This document shows, in pieces, positions 25,118-42,769 of a stretch of 64,000 nucleotides of DNA (its first letter is position 1; every line of letters begins with the position of its first letter). Both the position numbers and the translations under genes were made by a program. This DNA comes from a virus. The DNA is taken from IMG/VR virus record IMGVR_UViG_3300027878_000003, positions 2,992-66,991 of that record. The stretch is one strand, 5' to 3'. The notes under the pieces were generated by a model. The model searched no databases. It was given only the letters and a program-made list of their open reading frames with translations, and was not told the origin of the DNA.

Positions 25118-26059
25118 CTAGATGCCGCCAACAAGGTGGATCGACATCGGACGACGGCAGGAGATGCCAGCGTACTTAAACTTAGCGGGGCGTTCGTAGC
25201 CCATGCCTTTGCGCTGTAGGTCTTTCCAGGTCATGGGGTACATGATCTTGGCTTTGACCTTTGCAGGTTTGCGGCAGTAGAAGATAGCGATGTCAGTGCC
25301 ATCAACGCCAGCGCCAGCAAGTTCGTTCAATGGCTCTACATTTTTGATGTAAGGGCTGTTCTCTAGGAACTGCTTGAGGATTGACCAGCCTATGTTGCCC
25401 CCAATGCCGTTGCTATCTTTCGTAGTCGTCAAATAGTTGTATTGGCGAACAGGTAGCAGTAAGGTGTCAGGCTTCTCGATTTGCTGAGTCGCTTCCACGA
25501 TCGCGGTCGAGCCGTCGTTGAGAATTGCTAGGCAAGTCTCGGCGGGGGTGCCTGCCATCAAACGGGCAGGGCTGAAGGAGTACATCGCATAGGGGTTGTT
25601 GACGAAACCCGTCATACCCAAGGAGCGATCGCCAAAGGCAATCAGTTCGTTGAGCTGTTGGTGAGCTGCCTCAGCAACGCCCTGAACGTCTTCCGCTTCA
25701 ATCGAAATATCGCCAGCGTGCAAGGATGCGGCAATATCGTCATCGCTCAAGAAGTAGCCACCAATCCAGGAATAGATCCGTTGGGTGAACTCTTCAGAGA
25801 GCAGGTTAATCATGGGAATGTCAGTGGCATAAGTCCGCATTAAGCGGAAAGCGCCAACTTTGGTAATCCGACGATAGGTGGTTGTTAGCGCCCACTCTTT
25901 GTTCTGGATATCCAAGGGGACAATGCGACCATCGGCAAAGGGAAGATCCGCCAGGTCTTCCCGGTCAATGTTAGATTCAATGTCTTCAAGCTGCCGCTGA
26001 AACGCACCGATCGATGCTGCATCTAAGCGGATTTGGTCTTCTTCTAAGCCTGCGGGCAT
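25118..26059 (-). CDS. Major capsid protein (DUF2184/linocin-like HK97 fold)
   Basis: RQLEDIE, IAFGD..GMTGFVNNP, EKPDTLLLP, SILKQFLENSP, ELAGAG. Confidence 0.88.
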   Translation of the reverse strand: MPAGLEEDQIRLDAASIGAFQRQLEDIESNIDREDLADLPFADGRIVPLDIQNKEWALTTTYRRITKVGAFRLMRTYATDIPMINLLSEEFTQRIYSWIGGYFLSDDDIAASLHAGDISIEAEDVQGVAEAAHQQLNELIAFGDRSLGMTGFVNNPYAMYSFSPARLMAGTPAETCLAILNDGSTAIVEATQQIEKPDTLLLPVRQYNYLTTTKDSNGIGGNIGWSILKQFLENSPYIKNVEPLNELAGAGVDGTDIAIFYCRKPAKVKAKIMYPMTWKDLQRKGMGYERPAKFKYAGISCRRPMSIHLVGGI

Positions 26060-26110
26060 GGTCGTATCTCCGATAAATAATGAGTGGATGAGTGAAAGTC
26101 GAAACTGCGC

Positions 26111-26929
26111 TTAACCCAGCGCCACCAAAGCAATCCGGTCCCCGTTGGGATCAACCTCGACATTGCTGGCGAAGACTGCACCAGGGAGAGCCGTAACAGC
26201 AGTGCCCGCAGAGATTGAAGCAGCGCCTTCAGTGCCCGCATCAACGCATTGAAAGACGGCAGTGTCTGCAATGTTGGTTGTGCCAGTGGGTCCTGAGTAG
26301 CGAGTCCAAATGCCTTCCAGCGCTAGGGTGCGAGTCACGACATCCATAACTTCCAACGGCTGAATTCCCGAAACCGCAGTAGGACCAATCCCAACTTTCT
26401 CGGAGGCGTGAGTCGCCATGACAACGCCAATTCCAGCAACGGTGCTTCGGGTGATCCGACCTGCCGCAATCTCGTTGCTTCCCCGGACTATCGTGTTATC
26501 AATCGCAATGATTGAGCCGAAAGGAATCAGAGTTGAGATTGAAGCCGTTACAGTCTTCGTGGGTGACAGGTTCGTTCCTGTGATCACCATTGCCACACCC
26601 AAGAGCTTCCGCTCCAATACAATCCTGCGTAGCAGCGCGTTCAGAGTGACGTTCACAGAATCGTAAATTTCGCTTTGGCGAATTGCCGACAACAGACCAG
26701 CTTCTAGCTCTGTCTGTGTTGGCGTTCCGTCAGTGGTGAAAGAAACAGTTCGACCGTCTACAACTAAGGTGTAGGTTGTACTGGCAACTGGACTAGCGGG
26801 AATGGGCACTTCCCAAACTTCCGCCTTCGCATCCGCAGTGTTCTCTACAGAACGAACTCGGGGTAAGCCGATACCGGATGGCATTCCGGCATAGGCGATT
26901 GAAAATTTTCTACGATAAGTTCTTTGCAC
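26111..26929 (-). CDS. Capsid cement/decoration-like protein
   Basis: Between protease and capsid; AYAGM..IPFG..GVVMAT pattern. Confidence 0.6.
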   Translation of the reverse strand: MQRTYRRKFSIAYAGMPSGIGLPRVRSVENTADAKAEVWEVPIPASPVASTTYTLVVDGRTVSFTTDGTPTQTELEAGLLSAIRQSEIYDSVNVTLNALLRRIVLERKLLGVAMVITGTNLSPTKTVTASISTLIPFGSIIAIDNTIVRGSNEIAAGRITRSTVAGIGVVMATHASEKVGIGPTAVSGIQPLEVMDVVTRTLALEGIWTRYSGPTGTTNIADTAVFQCVDAGTEGAASISAGTAVTALPGAVFASNVEVDPNGDRIALVALG

Positions 26930-26987
26930 AGCGATCGCCTCCTAGCGTCTAACTGAAAAATCAAAATCAAAATCAAATAAAGCTGAA

Positions 26988-28361
26988 CTACCTGCCCTTG
27001 CTCATCGCTAGAGGCGCTTTGCAGTTATCCATGCGCTTTTGGTCGCGCTCGGATGCCTCTTCCTTCTTGCTAGAACCCTTGCCTTTGCCGCTCTTGGGTT
27101 CGGTTGAGTTCACCGCGCCCTCTAGCATGTCAGCGTGGAATTTGCTCACGGCATCCGTGCGCGTCTTCCCAGTGCTGGCAGCTCGGTAAAGCCCCGGCAC
27201 TTCGTCATCGGCAATGTCTTCGCCAGGATGAAGGGCAGTCACTAGCGATCGCTTGATTTCCATGGGGCTAGAGCCAGAGTCGAAGCGAACTTCAACGTTG
27301 ATTCCCTGTTCCTTCAGACCTGCAATTACCTGGTAGGCATTGTTCAACGCATCTACGCGAATCGCGGCTTCTTTAGAAACCCGTTCTTCTATTGCTGCTT
27401 CGTCAACACCGCTATCGGTGCGAGCTTCAGAGAGTTCAGCGATCGTGTCCTTAGCCTCTTCAAGCTGGACTTCAAAGCCGTAAGCAATGCCTGCTTGCCG
27501 ATCCTTTTCTTCAGTCATGGCATCCAGGCGCTCAACCAGCCCTTCAACCTGATCAGCAGCGTCAAAGCGTGCAGACGCTTCTGCGTCTAGAGAATCCATT
27601 CGTTCTTTCTGAGCCGTCAGTTTCTGGGAAACGACTCCAGCTAATGCTTCTGGGCATTCATAGCTGGCTCCGTCAATGGTGATTGTTGCCATAGGTCTAC
27701 CTGGTTCTTTGCCTGTGTCTGAGAGTGGGTCAACTGAATCGTTGTGTTCAGTGTTCACAAATTGAGAAATCCATTTACATTCGTCTGCGTCCGCGTCTAA
27801 ACCCGTGTCCATCTGCATCCCCACGTCAAGAACATCGCCGCTGTCCATCCGCAATCTGGTGCCCACGCCAGCGCGAGGATTGTCGGTCAAAGCAATGTGG
27901 TTGTAGCGAATATTGGTTTGGCGGTGAGTGTAGGACGTGCCGTCGTACTCGCCCGCTTCTTCAGCGCAGTCGCAGCGATAGCCCGCAGAGAGATAGCGTT
28001 TCCTGCCAGCCTTAATTGTCTCAACTGCATCCTCTCGCTGGATGGCAAATACAACTTCAATTAAGCCGCCGTCGAGCACATCAACGCGGTGACCGCTGAT
28101 CCCAACAGCGTCACTGCCCCAACTCCTGGGGCTAACCAGCGATCGGGGATGTTCCAAGCACACAGGCTTGGTGCCTAATGTTTTGAGGCTATCGGTTCTG
28201 AGTACATCTTCGGGATGTCGCAGCTCATACTGCATGGAGCCGTCAGAATTTTGATAGGGGAACACGCCACAGCGAGTGGGCACCCCCTTTACAGTGAGGA
28301 ATCCTTCTTCTGATTCCTCCACTTGATTGACAATACCAATGTCGTATCTAAGAACTTCCAT
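26988..28361 (-). CDS. Prohead protease/scaffold (DUF2213-like)
   Basis: EGFL..TRCGVFPY..ELRHPEDV..EHP..LSAGY..QTNIRYNHIAL..PRAG, then a coiled-coil scaffold. Confidence 0.88.
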   Translation of the reverse strand: MEVLRYDIGIVNQVEESEEGFLTVKGVPTRCGVFPYQNSDGSMQYELRHPEDVLRTDSLKTLGTKPVCLEHPRSLVSPRSWGSDAVGISGHRVDVLDGGLIEVVFAIQREDAVETIKAGRKRYLSAGYRCDCAEEAGEYDGTSYTHRQTNIRYNHIALTDNPRAGVGTRLRMDSGDVLDVGMQMDTGLDADADECKWISQFVNTEHNDSVDPLSDTGKEPGRPMATITIDGASYECPEALAGVVSQKLTAQKERMDSLDAEASARFDAADQVEGLVERLDAMTEEKDRQAGIAYGFEVQLEEAKDTIAELSEARTDSGVDEAAIEERVSKEAAIRVDALNNAYQVIAGLKEQGINVEVRFDSGSSPMEIKRSLVTALHPGEDIADDEVPGLYRAASTGKTRTDAVSKFHADMLEGAVNSTEPKSGKGKGSSKKEEASERDQKRMDNCKAPLAMSKGR

Positions 28362-28384
28362 GAGCGATCGCTTAAGGTTGCTCT

Positions 28385-28394
28385 TAGATTTCCC
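28385..28394 (-). promoter_or_regulatory. Putative late-promoter motif GGGAAATCTA
   Basis: About 24 nt upstream of the DUF2213 start. Confidence 0.5.
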
Positions 28395-28430
28395 GATTCA
28401 GGTTGGGCGTTTGCGTTTGAGAATAGGCAT

Positions 28431-28466
28431 AAAAAAGCGCTCAAGGGTAATTAAGCCCTGAGCGCT
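28431..28466 (-). terminator. Intrinsic terminator after the giant gene
   Basis: Minus strand AGCGCTCAGGG..CCCTTGAGCGCT followed by a T6 tract. Confidence 0.7.
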
Positions 28467-28496
28467 ACGAAATAAACAACTTGCCTCCAACTTACC

Positions 28497-31400
28497 CTAT
28501 TCAGTACGTTTTTGACCCAGGAATGCTTTGTCTAATGGATGCTCTTGGGATACACGGGCAACCGCTTCATCTATCTCCTTCTGCATGGCTCGGTTGAGCA
28601 TTGTCATTGCTTGGTCAGCTTTTTTTACCAACAAGTCGGAATGACCGCCCTTACTCCGAACCTCGGCATGAAACACTCTCAGAAGTCGCTGATGATTCTC
28701 CTGACTTTTAGCCTTAATCTCATCAACAGCGATCGCCAGTGACTTCTCTCGATTACCCTGAGCAATCAAAGCGTGTTCCATCGCCTGCCACTTTTTCTGA
28801 GAGCCGCGAGTGGGCATCTCTCTGATTTCCTTGGCTCGTTCCTTAAAGGGTTGAGACAGTCCAGATAACTCTTCGCTATATCGATCTTGAGCCAGCTTGC
28901 CGACAGCCTTTGTTACTCGTTGCTCCAAATTAGCGGGAGTCACAACTGATAGATCTAGTCCGCGACGAACAGAGGTAGCGAACGCCACACCCTCTTTGGA
29001 ATTTGAAGCTAAAGCCCCTTTGACCGTCGAGCCAGCAGCCATTTTGTCACGCTCCGCTTGAATCTGTTCCTGTGTGCTCTTCACAGCTTCTTGTCGTTGG
29101 ACTTCAATTCGCTGCAACGCATTACGCTCGATAACCGAAGCCGCTTCTCCCGTTCTCCGGGCTACCTCCTCTTCACCCTTCACCTTTAGATCATTAGCTT
29201 TTGCCTCAAAGTCCTTCTCCATCTGAGCAGTGCGACTTTTGTAGGTAGTCATGAACTCTTTTTTAATCTCTTTCCTAGTGGCAGCGATCGCTTTTGCTTG
29301 CCCCTGTTCCATATCTACGATGCGTTTTTTCGCCTCTTCGTGGTCAGACTCTAGCTGCTTTAACTTAGCAGCCTGCTCTGGGTTTGATTCGCCAGAGAGA
29401 ATATCCTTTTTCTGCGTCTCAAATTCATCAGATAGTTTCTGAGTTGTTTCCGCTGTTGCGGTATCTACAGCTTTTTTGGTTTTAGCCTCTTCCTCTTTGC
29501 GAATCCGCGACTCCTGTCTGGTCAACTCTTCTTCGCTTTCGGCTTTCGCTTTCGCTGTAGTGGCGGAGATCTTGTTGTCAGCCCACCACTTGCCAGCCAA
29601 GGCTCCACCGACTCCGGCGACTCCAATGGCTCCACCAATTCCGATCGCTGCGGCAATAGCTCCCCCAGAGGATGACTGACGCTTAATAGTCTCTGCGATC
29701 GCCCCGTTCAGGCGTTGATTCCCAGGCGTTGAACCGGAATCATCGCCGTCATCCTTTTTGGGGCGATTAGGATCAAGTTTTCTCAGGTAGCGTCCACCCT
29801 TGACTCGCCTGTCGTTGACCCAGGTGTGACCTGGAGGAGCACCGTCTGTAGAGTCAACTCTCTTGTTAAGGCGATCGACTTTTGATTTCAACTTTCTCAG
29901 GTATTTTCCACCTTTCACCCGTGCATCAAGAACCCAGACATGTCCAGCAGGGGCAGCGTCTTTAGAATCGGTTCTGTTCGCCTTGTCATGAGCATTTTTG
30001 GCTAATAGTGCAGTAGCTCCCAACACCCCGACAGAGAACAACCCAGCCCCTACGGCTACCCTGCGTCGTCGCCGTGATTCTTCCGCTGGAGTTTCGCCAT
30101 ACTCATCCTCCCACTCCGCCTCTTCTTGTTTTTGAAGTTCACGCCCTTTTGCCGCATTCCACGATTTATCGCCTTTGCCCTGCACCCCACCATTAGACTT
30201 TCTCAAGTATTTCCCACCTTTCACCCGTGAGTCATGAACCCAGACATATCCAGCCGGGGCAGCGTCTTTAGAGTCAACTCTTTTTGACTTTACCTCTATG
30301 GTTTCACCCTTTACTGCTTCATCGTGCTCCAAGTTCACTGAAGCCTTAGCAGCAGCATTTGGAGGGGTTTGAGGCGATCGCGCCTTTGACCTGATCTCTT
30401 TGTCCGCATCTATTTTGCCAGCAAGAATGGCTCTAGCTCCCACTGCCGCACCAAGCACCCCACCAGTAACGATACCGCCCCCAATCAAGCCCGCCACTTT
30501 CAGCGCCGTTCCGCCTCGCTTCTTCCGCAAATAACGCCCACCTTCAACCCTGCTATCTTTAACCCAGACATGTCCAGCCGGGGCACTGTCTTTAGAATCA
30601 ACCCGTTTTGACTTTACATCTATGGTCTTATCCTTTGAGTTGCTGTCATTCTCCAAGTTCACCCTACTGGTAGCCTCAGTAGCAGCCTTTGGGCGGGTTC
30701 CAGACGATCGCGCTGACGGAGGCTTCTTGGACGTTTCTTCCTCTGAGGGGTCATTCTTGGCGGCTGAAGCCGCATCATGTTGCTTCTGAAACTCTTTTTT
30801 AGACTCGCTCCGTAGATGATTAGAAATCAAAATTCCCTTTGCCGCACCGCCGATAACCGCCGCACTGCCGATAACCGCCGCACCTGCAACAATTGCTTTG
30901 CTGTGTGACTTCTTCCGCAAATAACGCCCACCTTCAACCCTACTGTCTTGAACCCAGGTAAATCCTGGGGGCGCTCCATCAGCGGCATCTGTTCTAAGAT
31001 TTATGGCTCCAGCAATAAAGGCATCTGGGCGGTCTGCCAATACTAGATCCAAAATCATCTGCGCCTGCGCTTCGCCAGAATCCTTTCGCTCCGTCTTCAT
31101 CGGCTTATCCATTGACTCAGGTGTGGGCAATTCAGGCGACTTTGACGCTAGGGTCGTCATTAGAACCATCAAATAGTTTTTATACATCCCTACCCGGATC
31201 GAATCGGCTAACGACGGATATAAGACGGCAAATTCTTCAGCCAGAGCGCCGTAATCTTCGGGCGATCGCAGTTCCTGGGTAGCTGGGTCAATCGTTGCAT
31301 TGAACGCTTCAGATCGAGAAACCGAATCACTAACGCGATCGGCAGAATCGACTCGATCTTTAGGCTTGGGAGGATTTTTCTTTAGATGTTCTACAGCCTG

Positions 31401-34400
31401 GGCAGCAGTCATCCGATCTTTTGCATAGACCTGGTAGTCAGAATGTCTGATGCGGAAAGGACCGACCCGAACAATTCGATCTTTCTCTTTTGAATCGTCT
31501 GCTTTTGCATTAGTATCGACCTTAAATCTCAGCCCAGTGTCAATGACTGCCTTTGAGATTGTCTGTGTAAACGCAGTAACCTTATCTCTTTGAGTGGAGT
31601 AATCTTTGCCCTCGACAATGCCTCTTGCTACGGACTCGCAGTTGGAGTCGAAACCCTGATAGGTAAAAGGAGTTCCAATGAGAGATTTTGCCCTAGCTAC
31701 AACTTCTTCTCCGCTCATTTTGATAGTGCCATCTCTTTTATGCATCTCGCTGGGCGGCACTTTCCTGTAAGCCGTCGCGTTCTTGTTAGCGTCTTTTGTC
31801 AATGGCTGCATCACAATCGTTGGAATTTTGTCGCTAATCTTTGGAGAACCCGTCGCGTGAACCAGCATGTGCTCCCCTGTCTCTGGATCTTTGCCAACAT
31901 AAACCCCGTAGTGTTGGCGGGTTCCCCATCCTGGAGCAGTAAAAGTCTTGGTGATTAAATCTCCGGGTTCAAGCTTGTCATATTCAGCCAGCGTGTTTGC
32001 GTCAGGAATACCATCATTAGGGGGAATTTGAGATCGATCAATCTCTACCTGACTGCGCTTCAGATCAACTGCAATTCCGGCAACTCCAGCTCCGGCGATC
32101 GCCAATGTAGTTACGCCTGCTAATGTGCCAATAGTCCGAAGGTTTTTCCTCTTAGCTTCTTGATTTATCAGGACTGACGGATCAAGATCTGAGCTTTCCA
32201 CCTGTTTTACGGGTTCCTTCTGCTCCTTAATCATTTCCGGGGCAGGATCGGCGGCGACGTTCCCGACATCACCCTTCAACCGCTGGCGAATTGTGGCTGT
32301 CGCTGCCTTTGCTTTTGGATCTGTAATTTTGATTCGGCAAGTCTTACCTTCTGCAATGCAAGCATCACCGCAAGCCTTGCCCTTGACACACTGGTCACCT
32401 TTGTCAGTCCGAGTTGATGCCACAACCGTTCTAAAGCCCATAACAAAAGCATCATTTCTAACATCCTCAGACTCGTTAAACTCTAGAACGTCATCACTTC
32501 CAATCGAGTAATCATAGGATTGAGAGCTAGTGACAAATTTCCCAACGATCGCATCATTCTTCCCTAGCGCAAAGGATGCAACGTTGACAGGACTACGAAT
32601 CCCTTCCTCTAGAATGGCAGCGATCGCTTTACGTATTGCTGATTGAGGGGCAGCGGCAGCGCTATCGGCGGCATCGGTTCTAGGCTGTTCTTTTTTAGCC
32701 GTGGTTGACGCTTCTCCCTCGACAGGTCCGCCCGACATGGCTGACAAGAGCACCATCAAATATTTTTTGTACATCTCCTTGCGAACTAATGGAGCCGAGC
32801 CAGGGAACTTCTTGGCTATTTGCTCAACTAGATCAGAGAATTCTTCAGGCGATCGCAGTCCCTCAGTTTTGGGGTCAATTACAGCATCCCAACTCGCGCT
32901 CAGCAAGTCGTCATTGGATGGCTTCGCTACGTCAGCCGCATCCTTTCTTTCCTTGGAATCAGCCTTAGCAGAAGTCTCCATTTTTTTGAGAGCTTCTACC
33001 ATCTCTTGAGCAGTCATCGCTTTTTTGTTTTTTCTATCTTCCTTATAGCCACTCCAATGCAGGCGTTTGTTACCAATCTTGACGATGGTACGCTTGTCAT
33101 TCTGCTTGTCAGTGCCATCATCAAGCCCAAACTTAAGAGCAGTATCAGTGAAGATCTCCGATGCTGTTCTGGTAAAGTTTGTGATGTGTTTGCCTTGAAC
33201 ATCATAGGCTTCACCCTCAACCATGCCCCGAGCGAAAACTTCGCAGCTTGAGGTGAATCCTTTGTAAGTAAAAGGTTTGTCAACCATTGCCAAAGACCGT
33301 TTGACAATTTCTTCTCTAGAATAAATCTTGCCCTTGCCCTTCAATTCTTCTTCTGGCACCTTCGCATAGTCGCTATGCCCCTTTTCCGCCTCTTTGGTTA
33401 GCGGGTTAATTTGCACATCAACTCGGCTCTTGTCATCCTTGCCAAAGTTAGTCTCAACCATCATGTGTTCACCCGTCTTCGGGTCTTTACCCATATAGAC
33501 TGAGTAGTGCTCAACCCGAAGCCCACCGAACCCTTTACCACCCCCTACACCGATAGACTTGCGGATCAGATCCCCAGGCTTAAAAGTGTCATAGGTCTTC
33601 AACGTTTCTTCGTCAGGCTTCCCATCTTCCGTTACCCGAAAGTTGTACTGTCCGTAGTCTGTACCCGCTTTTTTGACATCATTGGCAATGACACCAACGG
33701 CGGCTGTTGCCAATACTGCTGCCGTCACACCTGCACCAATGCCACCGACTGTAAGAGCCTTTGACCACTGGCTTTTGCCAATAGGAGTCTGAGGCGATTT
33801 CTCTGCTGATTGCTCATCAGCCTTGGCTGGGGTGTCGCTTGTTTTCGCCTTTACTGGAGTCTCCTTCTTTGGAGCCTCTTTAGCTGGGGCACTGGCTGGA
33901 GCAATCTTCTCTGAGGTTGGTTTAGCAGGCGTAGCGGTTGCTGTTTGTCCTCCCTCTTGTTGAATCGCCGATCGCACTTTGCCAAACTTATCGGCAAGCT
34001 CTTTGGGCATGGCAACTTTGCACTCTAGTCCTTCGGCAATGCAGGCTGCACCGCAAGCCTTACCCTTGACACAGCGATCGCCATCAAAGCGGAACGTTAC
34101 GCCTGCGCTCCGAACACCTGCGCTCCGAACGCCTGCTAGGAAGGCATCGGCTCTAACGTCTTTAGACTCGTTGTATCGAATCTCGTTTTTGGTATTAATT
34201 TCGTAGTCAAAGACTTGACCTGACGTGGAGAACCGACCCAAAATGTTGCCTTGCGGATCAGCCCTATAAGAAATGATGCGAACAGGCTCACGAATTCCCG
34301 CCTCAATCGTGACAGCAAGAGCCTTGTTGATAGCCTGCTTGGATGTAGGGGGGCGGCTCTGCCCAGCAGGTGGCTGAGTAGATTGCTGTGCGGGTTTTGC

Positions 34401-34424
34401 CGATGCCGGAGCGGTTGTCACCAT
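28497..34424 (-). CDS. 1975-aa modular polyprotein: 2x [N-domain, Cys4, hydrophobic helix, LRAT/NlpC-P60-like], 5x WVxDxRVxGGxYLRK modules, coiled coil
   Basis: PGDLI..HY(S/G)VY.G..EE(I/V)V.R...FTY.GF.S(S/N)CE twice; repeats visible in the translation; lies inside the head gene cluster. Confidence 0.85.
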   Translation of the reverse strand: MVTTAPASAKPAQQSTQPPAGQSRPPTSKQAINKALAVTIEAGIREPVRIISYRADPQGNILGRFSTSGQVFDYEINTKNEIRYNESKDVRADAFLAGVRSAGVRSAGVTFRFDGDRCVKGKACGAACIAEGLECKVAMPKELADKFGKVRSAIQQEGGQTATATPAKPTSEKIAPASAPAKEAPKKETPVKAKTSDTPAKADEQSAEKSPQTPIGKSQWSKALTVGGIGAGVTAAVLATAAVGVIANDVKKAGTDYGQYNFRVTEDGKPDEETLKTYDTFKPGDLIRKSIGVGGGKGFGGLRVEHYSVYMGKDPKTGEHMMVETNFGKDDKSRVDVQINPLTKEAEKGHSDYAKVPEEELKGKGKIYSREEIVKRSLAMVDKPFTYKGFTSSCEVFARGMVEGEAYDVQGKHITNFTRTASEIFTDTALKFGLDDGTDKQNDKRTIVKIGNKRLHWSGYKEDRKNKKAMTAQEMVEALKKMETSAKADSKERKDAADVAKPSNDDLLSASWDAVIDPKTEGLRSPEEFSDLVEQIAKKFPGSAPLVRKEMYKKYLMVLLSAMSGGPVEGEASTTAKKEQPRTDAADSAAAAPQSAIRKAIAAILEEGIRSPVNVASFALGKNDAIVGKFVTSSQSYDYSIGSDDVLEFNESEDVRNDAFVMGFRTVVASTRTDKGDQCVKGKACGDACIAEGKTCRIKITDPKAKAATATIRQRLKGDVGNVAADPAPEMIKEQKEPVKQVESSDLDPSVLINQEAKRKNLRTIGTLAGVTTLAIAGAGVAGIAVDLKRSQVEIDRSQIPPNDGIPDANTLAEYDKLEPGDLITKTFTAPGWGTRQHYGVYVGKDPETGEHMLVHATGSPKISDKIPTIVMQPLTKDANKNATAYRKVPPSEMHKRDGTIKMSGEEVVARAKSLIGTPFTYQGFDSNCESVARGIVEGKDYSTQRDKVTAFTQTISKAVIDTGLRFKVDTNAKADDSKEKDRIVRVGPFRIRHSDYQVYAKDRMTAAQAVEHLKKNPPKPKDRVDSADRVSDSVSRSEAFNATIDPATQELRSPEDYGALAEEFAVLYPSLADSIRVGMYKNYLMVLMTTLASKSPELPTPESMDKPMKTERKDSGEAQAQMILDLVLADRPDAFIAGAINLRTDAADGAPPGFTWVQDSRVEGGRYLRKKSHSKAIVAGAAVIGSAAVIGGAAKGILISNHLRSESKKEFQKQHDAASAAKNDPSEEETSKKPPSARSSGTRPKAATEATSRVNLENDSNSKDKTIDVKSKRVDSKDSAPAGHVWVKDSRVEGGRYLRKKRGGTALKVAGLIGGGIVTGGVLGAAVGARAILAGKIDADKEIRSKARSPQTPPNAAAKASVNLEHDEAVKGETIEVKSKRVDSKDAAPAGYVWVHDSRVKGGKYLRKSNGGVQGKGDKSWNAAKGRELQKQEEAEWEDEYGETPAEESRRRRRVAVGAGLFSVGVLGATALLAKNAHDKANRTDSKDAAPAGHVWVLDARVKGGKYLRKLKSKVDRLNKRVDSTDGAPPGHTWVNDRRVKGGRYLRKLDPNRPKKDDGDDSGSTPGNQRLNGAIAETIKRQSSSGGAIAAAIGIGGAIGVAGVGGALAGKWWADNKISATTAKAKAESEEELTRQESRIRKEEEAKTKKAVDTATAETTQKLSDEFETQKKDILSGESNPEQAAKLKQLESDHEEAKKRIVDMEQGQAKAIAATRKEIKKEFMTTYKSRTAQMEKDFEAKANDLKVKGEEEVARRTGEAASVIERNALQRIEVQRQEAVKSTQEQIQAERDKMAAGSTVKGALASNSKEGVAFATSVRRGLDLSVVTPANLEQRVTKAVGKLAQDRYSEELSGLSQPFKERAKEIREMPTRGSQKKWQAMEHALIAQGNREKSLAIAVDEIKAKSQENHQRLLRVFHAEVRSKGGHSDLLVKKADQAMTMLNRAMQKEIDEAVARVSQEHPLDKAFLGQKRTE

Positions 34425-34426: not shown

Positions 34427-34849
34427 TTAGTTCTCTAAATCCAAAACGTGGTCTTGCAAAATCTCAACGATCGCCGTCTTCAACTTGATACCTACACCCA
34501 TGAAGGGGCGGGTCTTTTGGTTCTTCTTGGCGTACTTAACATTGGTGCCCACCACCACGCGATCGTCGTCAGCCTGATAGCTAATGCTCGCTCGCATCCT
34601 GCCTGTGGACTGGAGAATCTTCAGAATCCTACTGTTCTCCTTCTTCCAGTTGATGGTGGCTTGGCTCAATGGTGCCCAGGCGATGCCGTAGGGGTCTGTT
34701 TCCGTCTCAAAGCCCTCATCAAACTGGAGCAAAGCCTCTTCCCCAATATCCACAAAAGCAGAGCGCAACCGTCCAGCTTTGGACAATTTCGCTATGAGGC
34801 TCTGCACTTCAGAGCTATCAAATTCAGCAGAGATAATCGGCTCAGTCAT
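34427..34849 (-). CDS. Phage virion morphogenesis protein (Mu gpG-like)
   Basis: FETETDPYGIAWAPLS..KILQSTGRMRASI..VGTNVKYA..RPFMG; likely start MTEP. Confidence 0.85.
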   Translation of the reverse strand: MTEPIISAEFDSSEVQSLIAKLSKAGRLRSAFVDIGEEALLQFDEGFETETDPYGIAWAPLSQATINWKKENSRILKILQSTGRMRASISYQADDDRVVVGTNVKYAKKNQKTRPFMGVGIKLKTAIVEILQDHVLDLEN

Positions 34850-34949
34850 GGGCACAGCGAGAAATCTTCTCCCTAGAATGCCCAGACCAGTAGCGTCGGT
34901 AGAATTATGCCAATTCTCTCCGAATGGCCACATAAACGCGATCGCCCCT

Positions 34950-35177
34950 CTAGTTCTGTTTAACCACATAGCCACTGCCCATGCGATCGAGTGAAATAAT
35001 GTTCCCAACATTCCCACAGGATTTCAAGGCGTACTCTTCTACCGTTCCGCCGTAGGTTGCTTTACGAGCAGCGTATTCCACGATAAATTCTGGGGCTTCT
35101 CCAGCGGTAATGAGATCGCCCTCAACGGTGAAAGAATTGGTAACTTTGTGGTTTTCTAGAACGTTAAATGTCGTCAT
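34950..35177 (-). CDS. Small protein, candidate immunity gene for the MuF toxin
   Basis: 75 aa, GGAG RBS, starts about 10 nt after the MuF stop. Confidence 0.5.
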   Translation of the reverse strand: MTTFNVLENHKVTNSFTVEGDLITAGEAPEFIVEYAARKATYGGTVEEYALKSCGNVGNIISLDRMGSGYVVKQN

Positions 35178-35186
35178 TTTTCTCCG

Positions 35187-36869
35187 TCAGTCCGTCAGTG
35201 GCTTGAGTAACTTAATCAGATTCAGGCTTTTTTCATGATTGTATTTAATATTGCGCTCGTTGATGGTCTGTCTGTCCTGCATGTCAGCCTGAATCTTAGA
35301 TGACTTGTCAAAGCCTCCAGAAGAAGCGGCATTGGCGTGGAGCTTTAGTCGATTGGAGATCGACTCTGGGCTATTCTCTTGAGTCAGCTTTTCCAAGGAA
35401 GAAACCAAAACTTTTAAGTTCTTGGTTCTACCCATTATTAAAGCCTGCATCTCTGCTTCACCGCAGTCACGGAGGGCAAAGTCTATTTCCGCAGCAGTTG
35501 CGTCCTTAAACGCAAACCCATGATCAATGCCGTGATATCCCTTCTTTGGATCGTAAAATAGGTTCCCTGAATGGCGATCGGAATTCCCCGTAAAGATATC
35601 CAAAGCCATAATTTTTGCTAGGTCTGGGTGTTGTAAGGCTCGCCCAAAAGAATCCCTGTTTTGCGTTGGCGTACCCCCCAAGGAGAGGGACATTCTAGCG
35701 TTAGCCCCTTGATGAATTTTATTGCACTGAATCCCTGGAACCAGCTCATGAAGCGAAGCTCCCCTTCCTTTCAAATGGATTAGATTGGGCGCTTGTGGGA
35801 CGATACGAACTTGGTTGACCTTAGCTCCAATTGATGTCCCCATCTCAGCTACCAGCACTTCAGCCGCAGTCTGGTGGGGGGAACCAACCTTAAATACCCT
35901 TCGCTTCTGATGTTGATCCTCCACATAGAACGATTTGTTGACTCCATTTGAATGGCGAGGATCATTAACCTTAGACATCCCAGACATCTCTTGCTTAGAC
36001 ACAAATGGCGATATCTTCTCAGGAGTCTTGGCATTCTTTTGACGGCGATAGTAGCCGCCATTTTCAACGGATCTGTCATCCACCCAGATCCGGCGATCGT
36101 CCGATCGCTCTGAGTCTTGCCGATCGCCCCCCATCAGCCCCTTATCCTTCATATCCTTCCTAACTTCCTCAGCCAGCTCTGGGGAAAGCCTGCTGATTCC
36201 TTGCTCTAAAACCTCTTGCCGTTCTGATTCAGGCGTTGTGCCAGGGGCGCGACGGAATCCTTTCTGTGCCACCGTACTTGGGTCAGGCGGCATCCCCACC
36301 GACAAACCTCTTGCCGCAAGATGGCGATCGCCAATACTAAATGCACGGCATTTGCAGCCATATCCGCAAGGTGGGTAAGCCATCTCCCAGAACGGATCAT
36401 CAGCTCGAAATACTTGATTGTGCAGCTCCAAGTGATGCATTCGAGGACTAGGGGAATCGCCATGCTTCCACATCCAATAGGGACGCTTGCTCAGAACGTC
36501 TGGGTCACGCATTTGTATCAGTCTGCCTGCACCGTAACTCCGGCGTATAGGCGTTTCAAAAATGATTCTCATCCGCCAGTCTGAGGGTCCGGCTGGTAAT
36601 GGTTCAGGAGTCCAGCCCCGCCGCCGCACCAATCGTTTGAACTGCTTATTGAACGTCTCAAAGGAATACCCTTCCGCGATCGCCTGTTCAATCAACCATC
36701 GCATTGACTCTAATAAGTCAGCGCGAGTTAACCCCGCGATCGTGTAGGCAAAGTCATGCTGCGATGCATCAAACTGCTTCCAGTTCTCTGTAGGGACAGA
36801 CAGCTTTTTGCGAAAATACTCAAGGGCTTCCTTGGGCAGCAGCTTTAGATAGTCAGGGGTGGGAGGCAT
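35187..36869 (-). CDS. MuF head protein with C-terminal HipA/PI3-4K-like kinase
   Basis: MuF: AYTIAGL..RPYW..PRMHH..FW..YPPCGYGCKC. Kinase: VFK, AAEVL, DIFTGNSDRHSGN, IDHG. Confidence 0.88.
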   Translation of the reverse strand: MPPTPDYLKLLPKEALEYFRKKLSVPTENWKQFDASQHDFAYTIAGLTRADLLESMRWLIEQAIAEGYSFETFNKQFKRLVRRRGWTPEPLPAGPSDWRMRIIFETPIRRSYGAGRLIQMRDPDVLSKRPYWMWKHGDSPSPRMHHLELHNQVFRADDPFWEMAYPPCGYGCKCRAFSIGDRHLAARGLSVGMPPDPSTVAQKGFRRAPGTTPESERQEVLEQGISRLSPELAEEVRKDMKDKGLMGGDRQDSERSDDRRIWVDDRSVENGGYYRRQKNAKTPEKISPFVSKQEMSGMSKVNDPRHSNGVNKSFYVEDQHQKRRVFKVGSPHQTAAEVLVAEMGTSIGAKVNQVRIVPQAPNLIHLKGRGASLHELVPGIQCNKIHQGANARMSLSLGGTPTQNRDSFGRALQHPDLAKIMALDIFTGNSDRHSGNLFYDPKKGYHGIDHGFAFKDATAAEIDFALRDCGEAEMQALIMGRTKNLKVLVSSLEKLTQENSPESISNRLKLHANAASSGGFDKSSKIQADMQDRQTINERNIKYNHEKSLNLIKLLKPLTD

Positions 36870-37561: not shown

Positions 37562-37779
37562 TGCCTAATCTGAATCCAGAACTTAACATAGGCATCAGGA
37601 TTATCTGCTGCCACACCAAACGCGACACCGACTAGATCCTCAACGGGCACATCACCTTCGCTGGCAATCTGCACTACGCAACCCGGAATTACAAAATTAC
37701 GAGTGTATTGAGTTTTGGTTTCAGCGATCGCCTCGGGTTTAGCTAATCGTCTGGGGTTTTGTCTCTTTGGAGTTGCCAT
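37558..37779 (-). CDS. Hypothetical protein
   Basis: 73-aa ORF overlapping the next start. Confidence 0.55.
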   Translation of the reverse strand: MATPKRQNPRRLAKPEAIAETKTQYTRNFVIPGCVVQIASEGDVPVEDLVGVAFGVAADNPDAYVKFWIQIRQ

Positions 37780-37815
37780 GTTGAGGGAGGTTAGTACAGT
37801 TCTAGTTCAATTCAC

Positions 37816-38616: not shown

Positions 38617-38680
38617 GAATCTATCCTGCTAATACAAAGAATGTGGAATTGAAACAATCAAATAACCCAGCGATCGCTCG

Positions 38681-39268: not shown

Positions 39269-39559
39269 AGTGGATTCTGAGATACTTTCCTTCAGAATTC
39301 CCAAGCCCGTCGATTCATTTGAATTAGCTAAGAAGTGGGAAGCCTCACACCATAATCTTTGATTTGGTGTGAGATGAAAGCGTGTGAGTGAGGGTGCGTT
39401 GCCTGACCAATGCGAAGCGAGGGAAGGCAACAGTGACCGAGCGAACAGTTATCTTCTGGGCTATAATAGAACGACAGCAACACTTCAACTGTTGCCTAGC
39501 AGGTTGATTTTCTTCCAGTGAAATGTCTGATAAGCCTCTGATTTGCGACATTGCGATCT

Positions 39560-39733
39560 CAAACAAGCGTCTCCGTTGCATCGCTCACGAATAGAATGAA
39601 AAACATTTGAATATTCAAAGTGGCGTTGGGCATCGCGTCACTATAAAATGCTCCAGTCCGGTTCATCGTAGAACGACTTTCCGGTGGGAGAAGCCTACTC
39701 TGTATGCGAAGCATCAGTGTAGGAGTATGTCAC
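39560..39733 (+). mobile_element. IS200/IS605-family right-end remnant (orphan omega-RNA/MITE-like); left boundary uncertain
   Basis: AGAAGCCTACTCTGTATGCGAAGCATCAGTGTAGGAGTATGTCAC end hairpin, preceded by a tnpB-tail-like trace (aatattcaaagtggcgttgggcat, NI..GVGH). Confidence 0.55.
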
Positions 39734-39790
39734 CTTGATTTGTGCGACATTAATCTGGAACTGCGACATTAATCTGCGAACCTGCGATCG

Positions 39791-40465
39791 CTAGACAATG
39801 TACTGGGAGCGTTCAGCCCAATAGCCGTTGTAAGCAGTCTCGATCACTAAGCACCAAAACTCGTCAGTTTCTTCCATCAGCCAATGCCCATGGATCTGCA
39901 TTGTAAAGAAGGAAGCCAAGGCATTGTTGGCATAGATAGAGCAAGCATCAGCTTGCGCTTCTGACTCCATCTTCTTTATCTCCGCCTCCTTCTTACGTCC
40001 CAGGCGAAGGAATGTTCCGCCCCAGGTTCTTTGAGACGGATGGCTCAAGTCAACCTGAATACAAAACACCAGATGGCAAGGGCTAGTCGTACTATGACGT
40101 TTCTGCACCCACGCCCAAAACTGATGGGTGTTCGCTTTCTCCACTCGGAGCGCTGCCAGTGCGCCTGGAGTTTTCCGCAGATGCTCCGATCTAAGGACAA
40201 CTCGGTAGAGAGGGTCTTTGGGCAAAACACCGAAAAACTCGGACGTGATGCACCCACTAATCTTCCCCACGAAGGGGAACCTTCGATCGGCACAAAGCGC
40301 CTGGTATTGTTGTGGGTGCGAGGGCGAGGGCGATCGCCGGGGAAGCCGCTTGATTGTGGGTTTGACTTCATTAGCATATAGAAAAAGAAATTCAGCAATC
40401 TTACTTGCCAAGTAGTTTGAGAGAGGCATTGATTTTGTCCGTGGGACTAACGCGAATAATGGCAA
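39791..40465 (-). CDS. Hypothetical protein
   Basis: 224-aa ORF; start uncertain. Confidence 0.5.
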   Translation of the reverse strand: MPLFALVPRTKSMPLSNYLASKIAEFLFLYANEVKPTIKRLPRRSPSPSHPQQYQALCADRRFPFVGKISGCITSEFFGVLPKDPLYRVVLRSEHLRKTPGALAALRVEKANTHQFWAWVQKRHSTTSPCHLVFCIQVDLSHPSQRTWGGTFLRLGRKKEAEIKKMESEAQADACSIYANNALASFFTMQIHGHWLMEETDEFWCLVIETAYNGYWAERSQYIV

Positions 40466-40685
40466 TGCCCCCTGCCGCCGTCGAAATCCATTGCAATGCT
40501 TGAAATGGCGTAAAGCTATCTTGAGCGGACTGTCGTGCTGCTGGAATCAACACCAGCAAAAGAACAGAAATTTGCAAGACAATTTCTATGGGAGCAATCC
40601 GAACTCCAAACAAATAAACCCCATCAGAAGCACGGTTGGGACAAGAGGCAGGACAAATTGGATCGGATTTCGGCTCGTTTTCCAT
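40401..40685 (-). CDS. Small two-TM membrane protein
   Basis: Two hydrophobic segments. Confidence 0.55.
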   Translation of the reverse strand: MENEPKSDPICPASCPNRASDGVYLFGVRIAPIEIVLQISVLLLVLIPAARQSAQDSFTPFQALQWISTAAGGIAIIRVSPTDKINASLKLLGK

Positions 40686-40777
40686 GCATCAATATTTCCC
40701 AGAGCGATCGCCCCATTTGCAAATTCCTGATTTCTGCCAATCAGGGAACTCTACAAGAGAAATCATTGGCAAGGACT

Positions 40778-42769
40778 ATGACTGAAGAGTTTGGGGTGAT
40801 GCGTACAGACGGAGTGATAGAAAACCTGTCTACTGGGATGGGTGATCCAGCTTTTGACAAATCAGCGAATTACCAAGTCGTTCGGAACGATCGCCTCACC
40901 AAACTCGATCTAGAGAACTTGTTTGAGGGCGCTTGGATACCCCAGGTCTGCGTCACAGCCTACCCCAAGGAAGCCGTTCGCAAGTGGCTAGAAATCAAGA
41001 TGGGCGGCAAAACCTCAGACCGCACCAAAATCTCTGAGTTTGATAAGTACCAACAGAAGATTGGTGTTGCCGCCGCCTTTTCTAAGGCTGACACCTGGGC
41101 GCGGCTCTATGGCGGTGCGGCGATCATCATCATTGCTGAAGATGGACAACCTTTCGATCGCCCCTTAAAAATCTCTACTCTAAAAAGCATTCGCGGGCTA
41201 AAGGTTCTAGACCGCCATCGCATCCGCCCCGTGATTGAATACAGTCTGATGGTGGAAGACCCAGAGTTCTATGAACTCATCCTGCCAGGGCAGATTGACG
41301 ACAAGTTCAGGAAGATGTTAGGGCAGGAAGCTGGCACAGGCACCCGCGTCCACAAGAGTCGGGTTATTCGGTTTGATGGGGTAGAGATGCCGCCTGACAT
41401 CATGCTCAGAAATGAGGGCTGGGGCACCTCCATTCTCAACCTGCTGTTTGATACATTTTCTCGATTTGAAGGCACCGATGCCAGTGTCACAACGCTGGTA
41501 CAGGAATCCAGCCTCTTCGTCTATAAGATGAAGAACTTATCAGAAATGCTGGCAAAGGCAGATGAGAAGTCATTAGCTCAACTGCGGAACCGCCTCGCCG
41601 CATTCCGATCCTCAAAGAGCAACTTCAAAATGCTCGTTGCCGACGCAGAAAAAGAAGATGTCTCGATCGTCACGCGCAATTTTGCCGGACTGCCAGACAT
41701 CATGGACAGGCAACTCATCCGCATCGTCGGGGCGGCTCGCATCACCATGTCGGTGTTGTTTGGACAAGGACCCTCTGGGCTGGCAGCTCAGGGAGCTGGC
41801 GACACAGAAGCTAAAGTTTGGTCAAAGTTGGTGCAGCAACATCAGGTCGATGCCTACCAGGGCAAACTGCGATCGCCCGATGACGGTGGACTCTTTGACC
41901 TAATCTGGCAAGCCAAAGATAGCCCCACCAAAGGCAAGCTGCCAGAGGATTGGAGCTTTGATTGGATATCCCTGATTGAGGAAACCGAGGAAGAGCGAAT
42001 CGCCAAACGCCTCAGTCAGAGCCAGGTCGATCGCGCCTACTTTGATATGAAGGTAGTCTTGCCAGAAGAGATCAGGTCATCCCGATTTGAGGGAGCTGAA
42101 TACTCCACAGAGACAGTTCTAGATGCCAAGGCTTGGGCGAAGTCGCAAGAAGATCCGTTTGCTGAGCTGGGCGGTGAGGGGGGCGGTGAGGGGGGTGATC
42201 CCAATGCAGACCCCAATGCAGACCCCTACGCAGATCTAAATGAAGACCCCAATGCCACCGGAGAGGAAGATCCTTTTGCCGCACTATCAGAAGAAGAAGC
42301 CCCACTGGAAGAAGCCCCACCGGAAGAGGAGAAACGAACTGACTCTGGCGATCGCCTTGAACAAACCGATTGCGATTGCGACAAGGAGTCAAAATCCAAG
42401 AAGAAGAAGGCAGTCAAGGGTAGACCGCTAGAAGATGTGGAGCAAGATATCGATCGAGAAGAGACTGCTGGCGTATACGCCAGCAGTCGAAAAGATGCCA
42501 AGGATGGCAAGGCTGATCCGGTTGACCTACTTGTCGATCGCTCAATGGAGAGCGCTTCAGGTCATGTCGTCGGCTGGGTTGACCAGATCTACGATTGGTT
42601 GGAAGGGCATAGAACCGATGGTATGAGCCTGGAAGAGGTGGCTAATCGGTTGCCGGGATTATATGGGCAGCTAGACTCAGACGGGTTTGTGCAAAGCCTG
42701 GAAACTGGAATGCAGTTTGGTGATTTGATTGGTCGGGGAGAGGTCTTAACAGAGATCGAAGAGGATTAG
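40778..42769 (+). CDS. Portal protein (DUF1073-like) with acidic linker and extra C-terminal domain
   Basis: NLSTGMG..DKS, WARLYGGAAI, RVHKSRVIRFDG, GWGTS, LFGQGPSGL. Start MTEE preceded by an RBS and GGGAACTCTA (40744-40753). Confidence 0.88.
   Translation: MTEEFGVMRTDGVIENLSTGMGDPAFDKSANYQVVRNDRLTKLDLENLFEGAWIPQVCVTAYPKEAVRKWLEIKMGGKTSDRTKISEFDKYQQKIGVAAAFSKADTWARLYGGAAIIIIAEDGQPFDRPLKISTLKSIRGLKVLDRHRIRPVIEYSLMVEDPEFYELILPGQIDDKFRKMLGQEAGTGTRVHKSRVIRFDGVEMPPDIMLRNEGWGTSILNLLFDTFSRFEGTDASVTTLVQESSLFVYKMKNLSEMLAKADEKSLAQLRNRLAAFRSSKSNFKMLVADAEKEDVSIVTRNFAGLPDIMDRQLIRIVGAARITMSVLFGQGPSGLAAQGAGDTEAKVWSKLVQQHQVDAYQGKLRSPDDGGLFDLIWQAKDSPTKGKLPEDWSFDWISLIEETEEERIAKRLSQSQVDRAYFDMKVVLPEEIRSSRFEGAEYSTETVLDAKAWAKSQEDPFAELGGEGGGEGGDPNADPNADPYADLNEDPNATGEEDPFAALSEEEAPLEEAPPEEEKRTDSGDRLEQTDCDCDKESKSKKKKAVKGRPLEDVEQDIDREETAGVYASSRKDAKDGKADPVDLLVDRSMESASGHVVGWVDQIYDWLEGHRTDGMSLEEVANRLPGLYGQLDSDGFVQSLETGMQFGDLIGRGEVLTEIEED

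Follow-up and report, generated by a model that had tools for sequence, protein, structure and literature searches.

The question raised by the DNA analysed here is whether a phage prohead protease reads one short motif in several head proteins and, by cutting at the same motif, divides a giant modular protein into separate pieces. The window (the whole stretch of DNA that was analysed, 64 kb of one 66,991-bp contig of the virus record IMGVR_UViG_3300027878_000003; coordinates are window positions unless marked otherwise) encodes a 457-amino-acid (aa) protein of the DUF2213 family among its head genes, together with a 1975-aa protein built of repeated modules. For phage T4, it is textbook knowledge that a prohead protease processes scaffold, capsid, portal and internal proteins at a short motif. 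A preliminary description of this DNA had proposed R-x-D as the corresponding motif for the DUF2213 protein, with sites in the scaffold half of that protein and in the capsid, portal, MuF, 1975-aa and 643-aa proteins. Our analysis argues that the DUF2213 protease reads [RK]-x-D followed by a small residue, and that the joints of the 1975-aa protein are probably among the places where it cuts. We put the probability of this whole account at roughly 0.65, and we regard the part of it that concerns the protease and its code as highly probable. What computation establishes directly is the enrichment of the motif, its specificity, the conservation of its positions and the fold of the protease.

The motif was counted in the 66 non-overlapping open reading frames (ORFs) of the 66,991-bp contig, and each count was compared with the number expected from the composition of the same protein (Poisson p values). 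All of the motifs listed in the preliminary description are present, and the DUF2213 protein does have 14 R-x-D, including RMDS, RFDA, RLDA, RTDS, RVDA, RFDS and RTDA. R-x-D-[ASG] is found 10 times in the DUF2213 protein against 0.69 expected (p = 3.6e-9), 13 times in the 1975-aa protein against 2.22 (p = 6.6e-7) and five times in the portal against 0.88 (p = 2e-3), and the enrichment is real for these three proteins. Elsewhere the motif is at background, with 12 occurrences against 12.3 expected in the other 63 ORFs pooled, and one against 1.57 in a 2579-aa tape-measure-like ORF that served as a negative control. That ORF had been considered as a second cargo protein, a candidate that was dropped because it is tape-measure-like and unenriched. 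The proposed sharing of the motif was thus upheld by the counts for the DUF2213 protein, the 1975-aa protein and the portal, but not for the capsid protein (one against 0.26 expected) or the MuF protein (one against 0.61), neither of which is enriched on its own, nor for the 643-aa protein. For these last three, the case depends on the location of their single site. The MRTDG of the portal lies at residues 89-93 of the longest ORF, so it is N-terminal, as had been described, only if the ATG at 40799 or 40778 is used. RQDS does stand between MuF and the kinase-like domain, at residues 250-253, but the kinase is a sub-threshold match and MuF proteins are unenriched as a class; the RTDK of the 643-aa protein is present at residues 102-105, but without enrichment.

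Models and family matches support well the assignment of the DUF2213 domain as a gp21-type prohead protease with the fold of T4 gp21 and herpesvirus assemblin. PF09979 matches residues 16-169 with 110.5 bits (cut-off 22), and phrog_530, 'head maturation protease', matches residues 2-444 (E = 2.1e-55). An AlphaFold2 model of residues 1-185, made with 83 sequences, has a mean predicted local distance difference test (pLDDT) score of 88, and its residues 164-178 fall below 50 and are disordered. When we compared this model with the PDB by Foldseek, the best matches were chains A-C of the T4 gp21 protease structure 5jbl (E = 1.1e-4 to 1.9e-4, probability 1.00, template modelling score 0.52-0.61). 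These were the sole matches below E = 1e-3, those to the protease of the herpesvirus KSHV (Kaposi's sarcoma-associated herpesvirus) being weaker (probability 0.77-0.84). H71, S125, H155 and D173 are invariant in the 83-sequence alignment, and we take the spacing of the His/Ser/His set to resemble that of the assemblin triad. The R-x-D-[ASG] sites of the scaffold half, at positions 254, 265, 278, 314, 335, 359 and 401, are kept in the four closest relatives, with swaps of R and K. The earlier proposal that the DUF2213 protein is a prohead protease that cuts at the motif is borne out by the gp21 fold and the invariant His/Ser/His, and also by the family-wide, specific enrichment and the two capsid N-termini described below.

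The DUF2213 family is large. An exhaustive search of a 1.84-billion-protein library found 7,560 members at E ≤ 1e-3, and we combined 144 representatives from that search with 116 homologues from a word-indexed search to give 260 homologues. The 116 have 464 R-x-D-[ASG] where 72 are expected. In their scaffold parts, a scan of gapped residue pairs that was blind to the motif ranked R-x-D first (465 observed, 151 expected, z = 25.5) and also picked out F-D, L-D, R-F, D-G, D-S and D-A. The scaffold halves of all 260 contain 1104 [RK]-x-D-[ASG] against 226.1 expected, or 4.9 times as many, with K (52%) and R (48%) at P3, L, A and F at P2, and A (25%), S (19%) and G (11%) at P1′. At least four sites are present in 208 of the 260 homologues, and 170 are enriched at p < 0.01. 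Seven control patterns (Glu for Asp, reversed order, a spacing of 0 or 2, Q/E at P3, D-x-[RK], and a non-small residue at P1′) all lie between 0.76 and 1.27 times expectation in the same scaffold halves, the exchange of Glu for Asp giving 0.78 and the other spacings being unenriched. The co-occurrence of the motif with DUF2213, which the preliminary description suggested testing across such phages, therefore extends through the family and is specific to the motif. The code itself is real but broader than the R-x-D first proposed, being [RK]-x-D and then a small residue, and T1-like phages use K. R and K are freely mixed, and for that reason we dropped the idea that the choice between them co-varies between scaffold sites and capsid or portal sites within one phage.

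A scan of viral contigs with the single protein found no close relatives of the protease, but a scan with the family alignment did find loci, and we fetched 80 of these from IMG/VR, sorted their 1461 ORFs into classes by phmmer and counted [RK]-x-D-[ASG] in each class. The DUF2213 proteins (n = 74) have 375 against 87.3 expected (4.3-fold), the portals (n = 60) have 110 against 52.2 (2.1-fold), and the capsid proteins (n = 60) have 38 against 21.2 (1.8-fold). The large terminases (n = 14; 12 against 12.8, 0.94-fold) and all other ORFs (n = 1201; 318 against 319.4, 1.0-fold) are at background. Just one of the 1201 other ORFs reaches p < 1e-3, and it is a 260-aa ORF straight after a 223-aa DUF2213 gene, which we read as a split scaffold. 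In that locus (L067:10670-11452, plus strand), the 260-aa ORF has eight sites against 0.81 expected, and protease and scaffold appear to be separate genes.

The sites of portals and capsids also cluster near the N-terminus. Of 59 portals, 39 have [RK]-x-D-[ASG] in their first 60 residues, as do 18 of 60 capsids, compared with 37 of 618 other ORFs, 6 of 50 MuF proteins and no terminase out of 14. These counts, like those by class, were made on longest ORFs, so that some N-termini carry extra residues. In the portals of related loci, the site reads [RK]-x-D-[GSA]-W and stands behind basic leaders of variable length. The more distant capsids show [N/R/K/H]-[L/F]-D-A-x-E-[S/T] instead, a pattern derived post hoc, to which 43 of the 60 capsids and 16 of the 618 other ORFs conform. 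Among close homologues of the capsid protein of this phage, 31 of 32 keep [RK]-x-D at the same N-terminal spot, as read from their N-termini, and the exception is a truncated fragment; P1′ in these 32 is D, A, N, T, S or K, often D, N or T.

Two coliphage-type capsids tie this position to a known mature end. The mature capsid protein of TLS begins with ASDMGIW by Edman sequencing (PMC11447400), and its gene encodes ...A-K25-N-D27↓A28-S-D-M-G-I-W (arrows mark the cut), so that the mature end lies directly after K-N-D. For T1, the cryo-electron microscopy model of the capsid protein gp47 spans residues 27-319 (PMC11945409) and the gene encodes V-K24-Q-D26↓A27, which places the model start directly after K-Q-D. 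The TLS paper remarks that its result agrees with T1 data (Roberts et al. 2004) (PMC11447400). In a phmmer comparison with PDB sequences, A14 of the capsid protein studied here pairs with A28 of the T1-type chain, which misses the cut by a single residue inside an AAA run. The proteases of T1, TLS and SECphi27 have 11, 12 and 11 [RK]-x-D-[ASG], respectively, against 1.1-1.4 expected, nearly all of them with K.

Within the literature searched, which did not reach subscription papers and supplements, we found no Asp-specific or [RK]-x-D consensus for a prohead protease. The parts of the T1 and TLS capsid papers that were covered report the N-terminus and state no cleavage consensus (PMC11945409, PMC11447400), and the papers on Xop411/Xp10, Avs7, phi24B, Rogue1 and Pam3 yielded no position of a cut in a DUF2213 phage that could be used. 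Gp24 of Pseudomonas phage Pa193 (PDB 9b40 chain G) is distantly related to DUF2213, phmmer aligning the protease domain with E = 0.008. It was published as a 'putative scaffolding protein' of which residues 286-326 remain at the capsid vertices, and the portions of that paper covered here mention no protease and describe a portal without its first 93 residues (PMC11042391).

An enriched motif could instead have a structural or binding role in the contacts between scaffold, capsid and portal, for instance as a salt-bridged helix N-cap, and the T1 and TLS N-termini would then have some other cause. D-[SAG] can start helices. Scaffolds such as Pa193 gp24 and that of P22 are helical and bind the capsid interior electrostatically (PMC11042391), and some R-x-D are embedded in folded parts, namely R5-x-D7 of the protease and IRFDG of the portal core. 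However, the TLS mature capsid starts right after K-N-D and the T1 model right after K-Q-D, and the motif is located in linkers that vary and are modelled with low confidence, and ahead of basic portal leaders of variable length. The intolerance of Glu in place of Asp and the lack of enrichment at other spacings fit a protease pocket and are stricter than a charge contact would be. We consider this structural explanation very improbable.

The sites might also be cut by something other than the DUF2213 protein, such as a host protease or the M23 domain protein encoded at 43880-45259, or the chain might break by spontaneous Asp-linked backbone cleavage. In support of this, the literature searched gave no report of activity for any DUF2213 protein, and an M23 domain protein is indeed encoded nearby. 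Yet the motif accompanies DUF2213 from phages of Escherichia coli to cyanobacterial-type elements and reaches its highest density in the very protein with the gp21-like fold, no M23 gene is among the annotated neighbours in the T1 and TLS head modules, and spontaneous cleavage needs no basic residue at P3. Another cutter is, to our minds, the least likely of the explanations considered here.

We return to cutting by the DUF2213 protease, which for the capsid, scaffold and portal of this phage is very likely. We propose that the 457-aa protein is a prohead serine protease fused to a scaffold, with His71, Ser125 and His155 as candidate catalytic residues, and that within the assembled procapsid it would cut after Asp in [RK]-x-D↓[S/A/G], P2 being free and often L or F. 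By its own cut at LRMD173↓S, the protease would come loose from the scaffold, and the scaffold would be chopped at about eight sites into peptides of 11-83 residues. The capsid protein would lose 13 residues, the portal would have its leader and its C-terminal extension trimmed, and MuF would be separated from the kinase-like domain.

The remaining question is whether the 1975-aa protein is a substrate too. This protein has 18 [RK]-x-D-[ASG] in all. Its modules A and B are 38% identical over 541 aa by BLASTP, with three sites on aligned columns, and share one order of elements, which runs from a leader of about 60 residues through DVR-x-D↓AF, R-x-D↓[G/K], the Cys motif CxKGxxCGxxCIxxGxxC and a hydrophobic segment to an NlpC/P60-LRAT domain, R-x-D↓[A/S], a helical domain and a last R-x-D↓[A/S]. 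Each module has one NlpC/P60-LRAT domain, two in total, and that of module B matches PF04970 at residues 818-940 (E = 3e-11). A leader of about 60 residues flanked by sites opens the 1975-aa protein, its module B and also the 643-aa protein. The five repeats that follow module B read R-x-D-[SA]-x-D-x-AP-x-G-x-x-WVxDxRVxGGxYLRK, with what we call the WV element ten residues after the site, and each continues into a Gly/Ala-rich hydrophobic stretch. Searches of the 1975-aa protein against Pfam, PHROGs and NCBIfam matched no peptidase family, metallopeptidases included.

Two elements recur shortly after these sites. The WV element, G-[HYF]-x-WVxDxxVxxGGxY[LWF]R[KR], is found at 29745-30995 and 36050-36122 (minus strand) of the window and in the related loci L004 and L005 and the related protein P0265. 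It matches no Pfam, PHROG or NCBIfam family, and it could be a capsid-, DNA- or membrane-binding hairpin. The four-Cys motif, which also stands at the very N-terminus of the related protein P0264, looks like a small metal-binding knuckle that opens each module, and relatives have a two-Cys variant, CGxG[YF][IV]x5C. In eight proteins of this phage and its relatives, [RK]-x-D lies 1-17 residues upstream of 13 of 13 WV elements and 11 of 11 Cys motifs. Random positions have [RK]-x-D within 30 residues in 22.8% of cases, and since the 24 joint instances share descent, no probability is attached to 24 of 24.

The relatives show the same parts in other combinations. P0263 (1721 aa), P0264 (2148 aa) and P0265 (1375 aa) have the architecture of the 1975-aa protein, and ORFs of 1470 and 1562 aa lie directly upstream of the protease gene in L004 and L005. 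These relatives mix the joint elements with lipase/cutinase-like, DnaJ, LRAT and kinase-like modules. An ADP-ribosyltransferase-like stretch was noticed in P0263, by eye only. The 643-aa protein is homologous, again by eye, to the C-terminal modules of the relatives' polyproteins. In the MuF protein, PF00454 (PI3/PI4-kinase) scores 24.5 bits, below its cut-off of 27.1. The kinase-like domain (35187-36110, minus strand; MuF protein residues about 300-560) has DRHxGN and IDHG motifs and recurs at the C-terminus of P0265, a repeat protein, at about residues 1200-1300, which marks it as a shuffled module.

From the position and conservation of these sites, we think that the odds slightly favour cutting and packaging of the 1975-aa protein. 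Cutting at the joints would yield two membrane-anchored NlpC/P60-like hydrolases with small leader and helical pieces, five short peptides each made of a basic hairpin and a glycine zipper, and a long helical C-terminal piece. Delivery of these pieces to the host is a more tentative proposal, which we hold at somewhat less than even odds. The cargo interpretation is drawn from the conserved joint sites, the joint pattern repeated in 24 of 24 instances, and the split and fused relatives.

It may be, instead, that the code is real for scaffold, capsid and portal, and that the 1975-aa protein is neither substrate nor cargo, its counts being the product of repeat duplication and the protein acting uncut, for example at the membrane or cell wall in lysis or entry. 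Its sites do sit in a duplicated module of about 530 aa and in five repeats of about 30 aa, the enrichment in its relatives is modest, and the tape-measure-like 2579-aa protein, implying a long tail, leaves no obvious need for an ejectosome of the podovirus type. Against this, the sites of modules A and B have stayed on aligned positions at only 38% identity, and among the relatives the spacing from site to WV element (4-17 residues) and its sequence vary, yet the site persists, in 24 of 24 joint instances against the 22.8% of random positions. Moreover, the gene lies between the MuF and G-like genes and the protease gene, here and in L004 and L005, and the same joint element follows the MuF domain, which is the marker of a head-internal protein family. 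An uncut 1975-aa protein is thus, in our view, unlikely.

A number of observations weigh against our account, in its general form or for particular proteins. Because a module of about 530 aa is duplicated and about 30 aa are repeated five times, the count for the 1975-aa protein is inflated and its 13 sites are not independent; about six ancestral sites would explain them. In the relatives, R-x-D-[ASG] is found seven times against 1.66 expected in P0263, six against 2.47 in P0264, three against 1.18 in P0265, five against 1.46 in L004 and five against 1.31 in L005, so that each giant protein is modestly enriched (p = 0.002-0.04) with the exception of P0265, which is not significant. For residues 560-1160 of the 1975-aa protein, AlphaFold2 gave a weak model (six sequences, mean pLDDT 49), and the finding that seven of nine sites lie in segments below pLDDT 50 is not significant given that 58% of all residues do. 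Confident domains enclose the other two sites, K-N-D↓A at 622 together with K-R-D↓G at 896, which are the pair without a conserved counterpart in module A. MuF proteins as a class are not enriched (33 against 29.9 expected in 52 proteins of the 80 loci, 1.1-fold), a count that includes the 1470-aa ORF of L004 (six against 2.77), probably through the WV element in the MuF seed (residues 1-280). The 643-aa protein has no R-x-D-[ASG] against 0.66 expected, and its RTDK has K at P1′. Within the family, 13 of the 260 homologues have at most one site, and some of the conserved R-x-D may be structural, among them the R5-x-D7 of protease strand 1 and the IRFDG of the portal core. The T1 model start at residue 27 could reflect disorder and not cleavage, which leaves the TLS Edman result as the one direct observation. 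Finally, many distant capsids have N, H or S at P3 instead of R or K, so a basic P3 is a preference and not a rule.

The positions of the features are collected in the table. On the minus strand, the genes run in the order MuF, G-like, 1975-aa, DUF2213, 272-aa and capsid, and the same order is found in L004 and L005. The DUF2213 gene thus sits in the head module near the capsid gene, as is the case for prohead proteases of the gp21/assemblin fold. The 272-aa protein has homologues of 269 aa at the equivalent position in L004 and L005, and a comparison of gene order places it where T1 has its cement/decoration genes. The closest relatives of the capsid protein are 44-81% identical to it, and two of them are labelled Leptolyngbya or Leptolyngbyaceae. 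In a collection of 50,697 phage records, nothing was closer to the protease protein than about 34% identity, over part of its length. The portal gene is on the opposite strand, several kilobases from the remaining head module, and the large terminase gene (55320-57026, minus strand) lies another 12 kb beyond it, an unusually scattered order of head and packaging genes. The phage 'transposase' family phrog_506 is matched by ORFs at 52788-53978 (minus strand, E = 2e-94) and 16706-18436 (plus strand, E = 4e-23), and mobile elements appear to sit within the phage genome. Two neighbouring minus-strand genes at 43880-47477 encode a 459-aa protein that contains an M23 peptidase domain (E = 3e-7) and a 742-aa FtsK/SpoIIIE-like protein (phrog_1358, E = 7e-24).

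The 2579-aa ORF runs off the start of the window, is rich in Ala and has no Cys. It matches phrog_1686 (E = 7e-7) and another tape-measure family (E = 1e-5), with no match in Pfam or NCBIfam. It starts where the 643-aa gene ends, with an overlap of one base. Its tape-measure-like character implies a long tail for this phage, and if it is a tape measure, the tail would be very long.

Table. Features of the head-gene region and of the proposed cutting sites (window positions; arrows mark predicted cuts)
Feature	Position	Strand	Basis or remark
Major capsid protein (PF09950)	25118-26059	minus	Pfam and PHROG matches
Capsid, predicted 13-residue propeptide, I-R11-L-D13↓A14	26018-26029	minus	homologue N-termini, phmmer
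272-aa protein, no R-x-D	26111-26929	minus	phrog_33525, E = 1.8e-27; between protease and capsid genes
DUF2213 protein, 457 aa	26988-28361	minus	PF09979, phrog_530
Scaffold half, residues 175-457; seven R-x-D-[ASG] and KRMD↓N near the C-terminus	26988..27839	minus	site list
L-R-M-D173↓S, protease/scaffold junction, candidate self-cleavage site	27840..27854	minus	D173 invariance, low pLDDT
Protease domain, residues 1-163; candidate catalytic His71, Ser125, His155	27873..28361	minus	PF09979, phrog_530, AlphaFold2/Foldseek
1975-aa modular protein	28497-34424	minus	ORF; 16 R-x-D, 13 of them R-x-D-[ASG]
1975-aa C-terminal part, residues 1561-1975: hydrophobic stretch, then long helical charged region, no site	28497..29744	minus	
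1975-aa five repeats of about 30 aa, residues 1144-1560	29745..30995	minus	sequence and site list
1975-aa module B, residues 585-1115	31080..32672	minus	element order as in module A
1975-aa module A, residues 1-584	32673..34424	minus	BLASTP against module B
Cys motif CxKGxxCGxxCIxxGxxC, 1975-aa residues 118-135 and 679-696	34018-34071, 32335-32388	minus	
Mu G/tail-completion-like protein, no R-x-D	34427-35017	minus	PF05069, E = 3.9e-14
MuF (residues 56-176) fused to PI3/PI4-kinase-like domain	35187-36869	minus	PF04233, E = 1.7e-15
R-Q-D252↓S then WVDDRSVENGGYYRR (WV element), between MuF and kinase-like domain	36111-36122	minus	
Portal (PF06381)	40535-42769 (longest ORF); likely start ATG 40778 or 40799	plus	Pfam
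Portal candidate sites: N-terminal (M)RTD↓G 40799-40813; C-terminal extension KRTD↓S 42332-42346 (residues 600-604), SRKD↓A, HRTD↓G	40778..42769	plus	
643-aa protein, outside the range of the preliminary description	4871-6802	minus	leader domain, RTD↓K, Cys motif
643-aa Cys motif, residues 109-126	6422-6475	minus	
643-aa RTD↓K	6488-6499	minus	single site, just before Cys motif
Tape-measure-like 2579-aa ORF	contig 123-7862 (window -2868..4871)	minus	PHROG tape-measure families

How does this system compare with those already described? The P3-x-P1 motifs recognised by the gp21-type proteases of T4, phiKZ and SPN3US end in an acidic P1 residue (L/I-x-E, S/A-x-E), and these enzymes act on scaffold, capsid, portal and internal proteins (PMC9026906, PMC10052503). 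In T4, the scaffold is cut to many peptides and N-terminal propeptides are removed from capsid and internal proteins, the latter then being ejected into the host; processing is inhibited when position 10 of the IPIII targeting sequence is Asp (PMC9026906). The DUF2213 protein is like T4 gp21, whose substrates are the gp22 scaffold, gp23/gp24, IPI-III and Alt, in its fold by Foldseek, in the short P3-x-P1 motif and in the acidic P1. It differs from gp21 in having Asp at P1 and a basic residue at P3, where T4 has Glu and L/I, in being fused to its scaffold, and in a sequence identity of only 12-13%. T4 also packages small, separate internal proteins, whereas the candidate cargo here is one giant multi-module chain. 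The phiKZ gp175 and SPN3US gp245 proteases are likewise gp21-like, with an S/A-x-E or A-x-E motif and a preference for Ser at P1′, and they process portal, capsid and ejection proteins at several sites per propeptide (PMC9026906, PMC10052503). In these giant myoviruses, P1 is Glu, the scaffold proteins are separate, and N-terminal propeptides of 20-254 residues are removed, in contrast to the internal polyprotein joints proposed here.

T1-like phages come closer. T1 gp50 and TLS Gp33 (Drexlerviridae) belong to the same protease family, with 26-31% identity over the protease domain by tblastn, and T1-like phages share the capsid (PF09950) and portal families, the density of motifs in the protease-scaffold protein, and the N-terminal sites of capsid and portal. 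In T1, the predicted sites include KHD↓G of the portal gp52 and KFD↓A of the MuF protein gp51. T1-like phages differ in having K and not R at P3 and in lacking a giant motif-rich protein in the head module. Herpesvirus assemblin has a related fold (KSHV protease, probability 0.77-0.84) and a protease fused to its scaffold, but it belongs to a eukaryotic virus, acts solely on protease-scaffold chains and cuts at (V/L)-x-A↓S.

For the 1975-aa protein, the nearest precedent is that of the polyvalent proteins, very large phage proteins of several domains that are associated with MuF and head genes and were proposed to be packaged, injected and processed (Iyer et al. 2017, PMC5512222). Their processing was proposed to be mainly by a built-in zincin-like metallopeptidase, and the portions of that paper covered here mention assemblin-like peptidases solely as C-terminal domains of some of them (PMC5512222). 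The proteins described here resemble these in carrying several effector-type domains (NlpC/P60-LRAT twice in the 1975-aa protein, MuF with a kinase-like domain, and the lipase/cutinase-like, DnaJ and LRAT domains of the relatives). They differ in that no metallopeptidase was found in the 1975-aa protein and in that the proposed cutter is a separate prohead protease reading a defined motif.

Processing by prohead proteases is already known from T4 and phiKZ-like phages, as are packaged polyvalent proteins. What is new, as far as we have searched the literature, is a code with Asp at P1 and a basic residue at P3 for the large DUF2213 family, and the apparent use of that code as the joints of giant modular proteins with a repeated joint pattern. 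In its broadest form, the proposal is that DUF2213 is an Asp-specific branch of the assemblin fold whose code predicts the mature ends of head proteins from sequence alone, and that a clade of cyanobacterial-type phages builds cleavable cargo polyproteins, by which one gene would supply first the capsid and later the host with a dozen or more separate pieces of hydrolase, membrane-active and kinase-like types. This we offer as a possibility that falls short of an even chance. The joint pattern that belongs to it, in which a leader and a site are followed by the Cys knuckle or by a basic WV..GG..RK hairpin and a glycine-zipper segment, we advance just as tentatively.

If the code holds, a three-residue rule, resting on two published capsid N-termini, would predict the mature ends of capsid, portal and scaffold proteins in thousands of phages, including the T1-like ones of laboratories and phage therapy collections. 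To our knowledge, only Glu and Ala are well documented at P1 in the prohead protease superfamily, to which a specificity for Asp at P1 would be added. The code of the DUF2213 protease and its predictions are directly testable in coliphage T1. Were the cargo part also true, phages of this kind would load many effectors by means of one cleavable chain, and a leader with its site would provide a design for packaging foreign proteins in DUF2213-type capsids, in parallel with the use of the T4 capsid targeting sequence.

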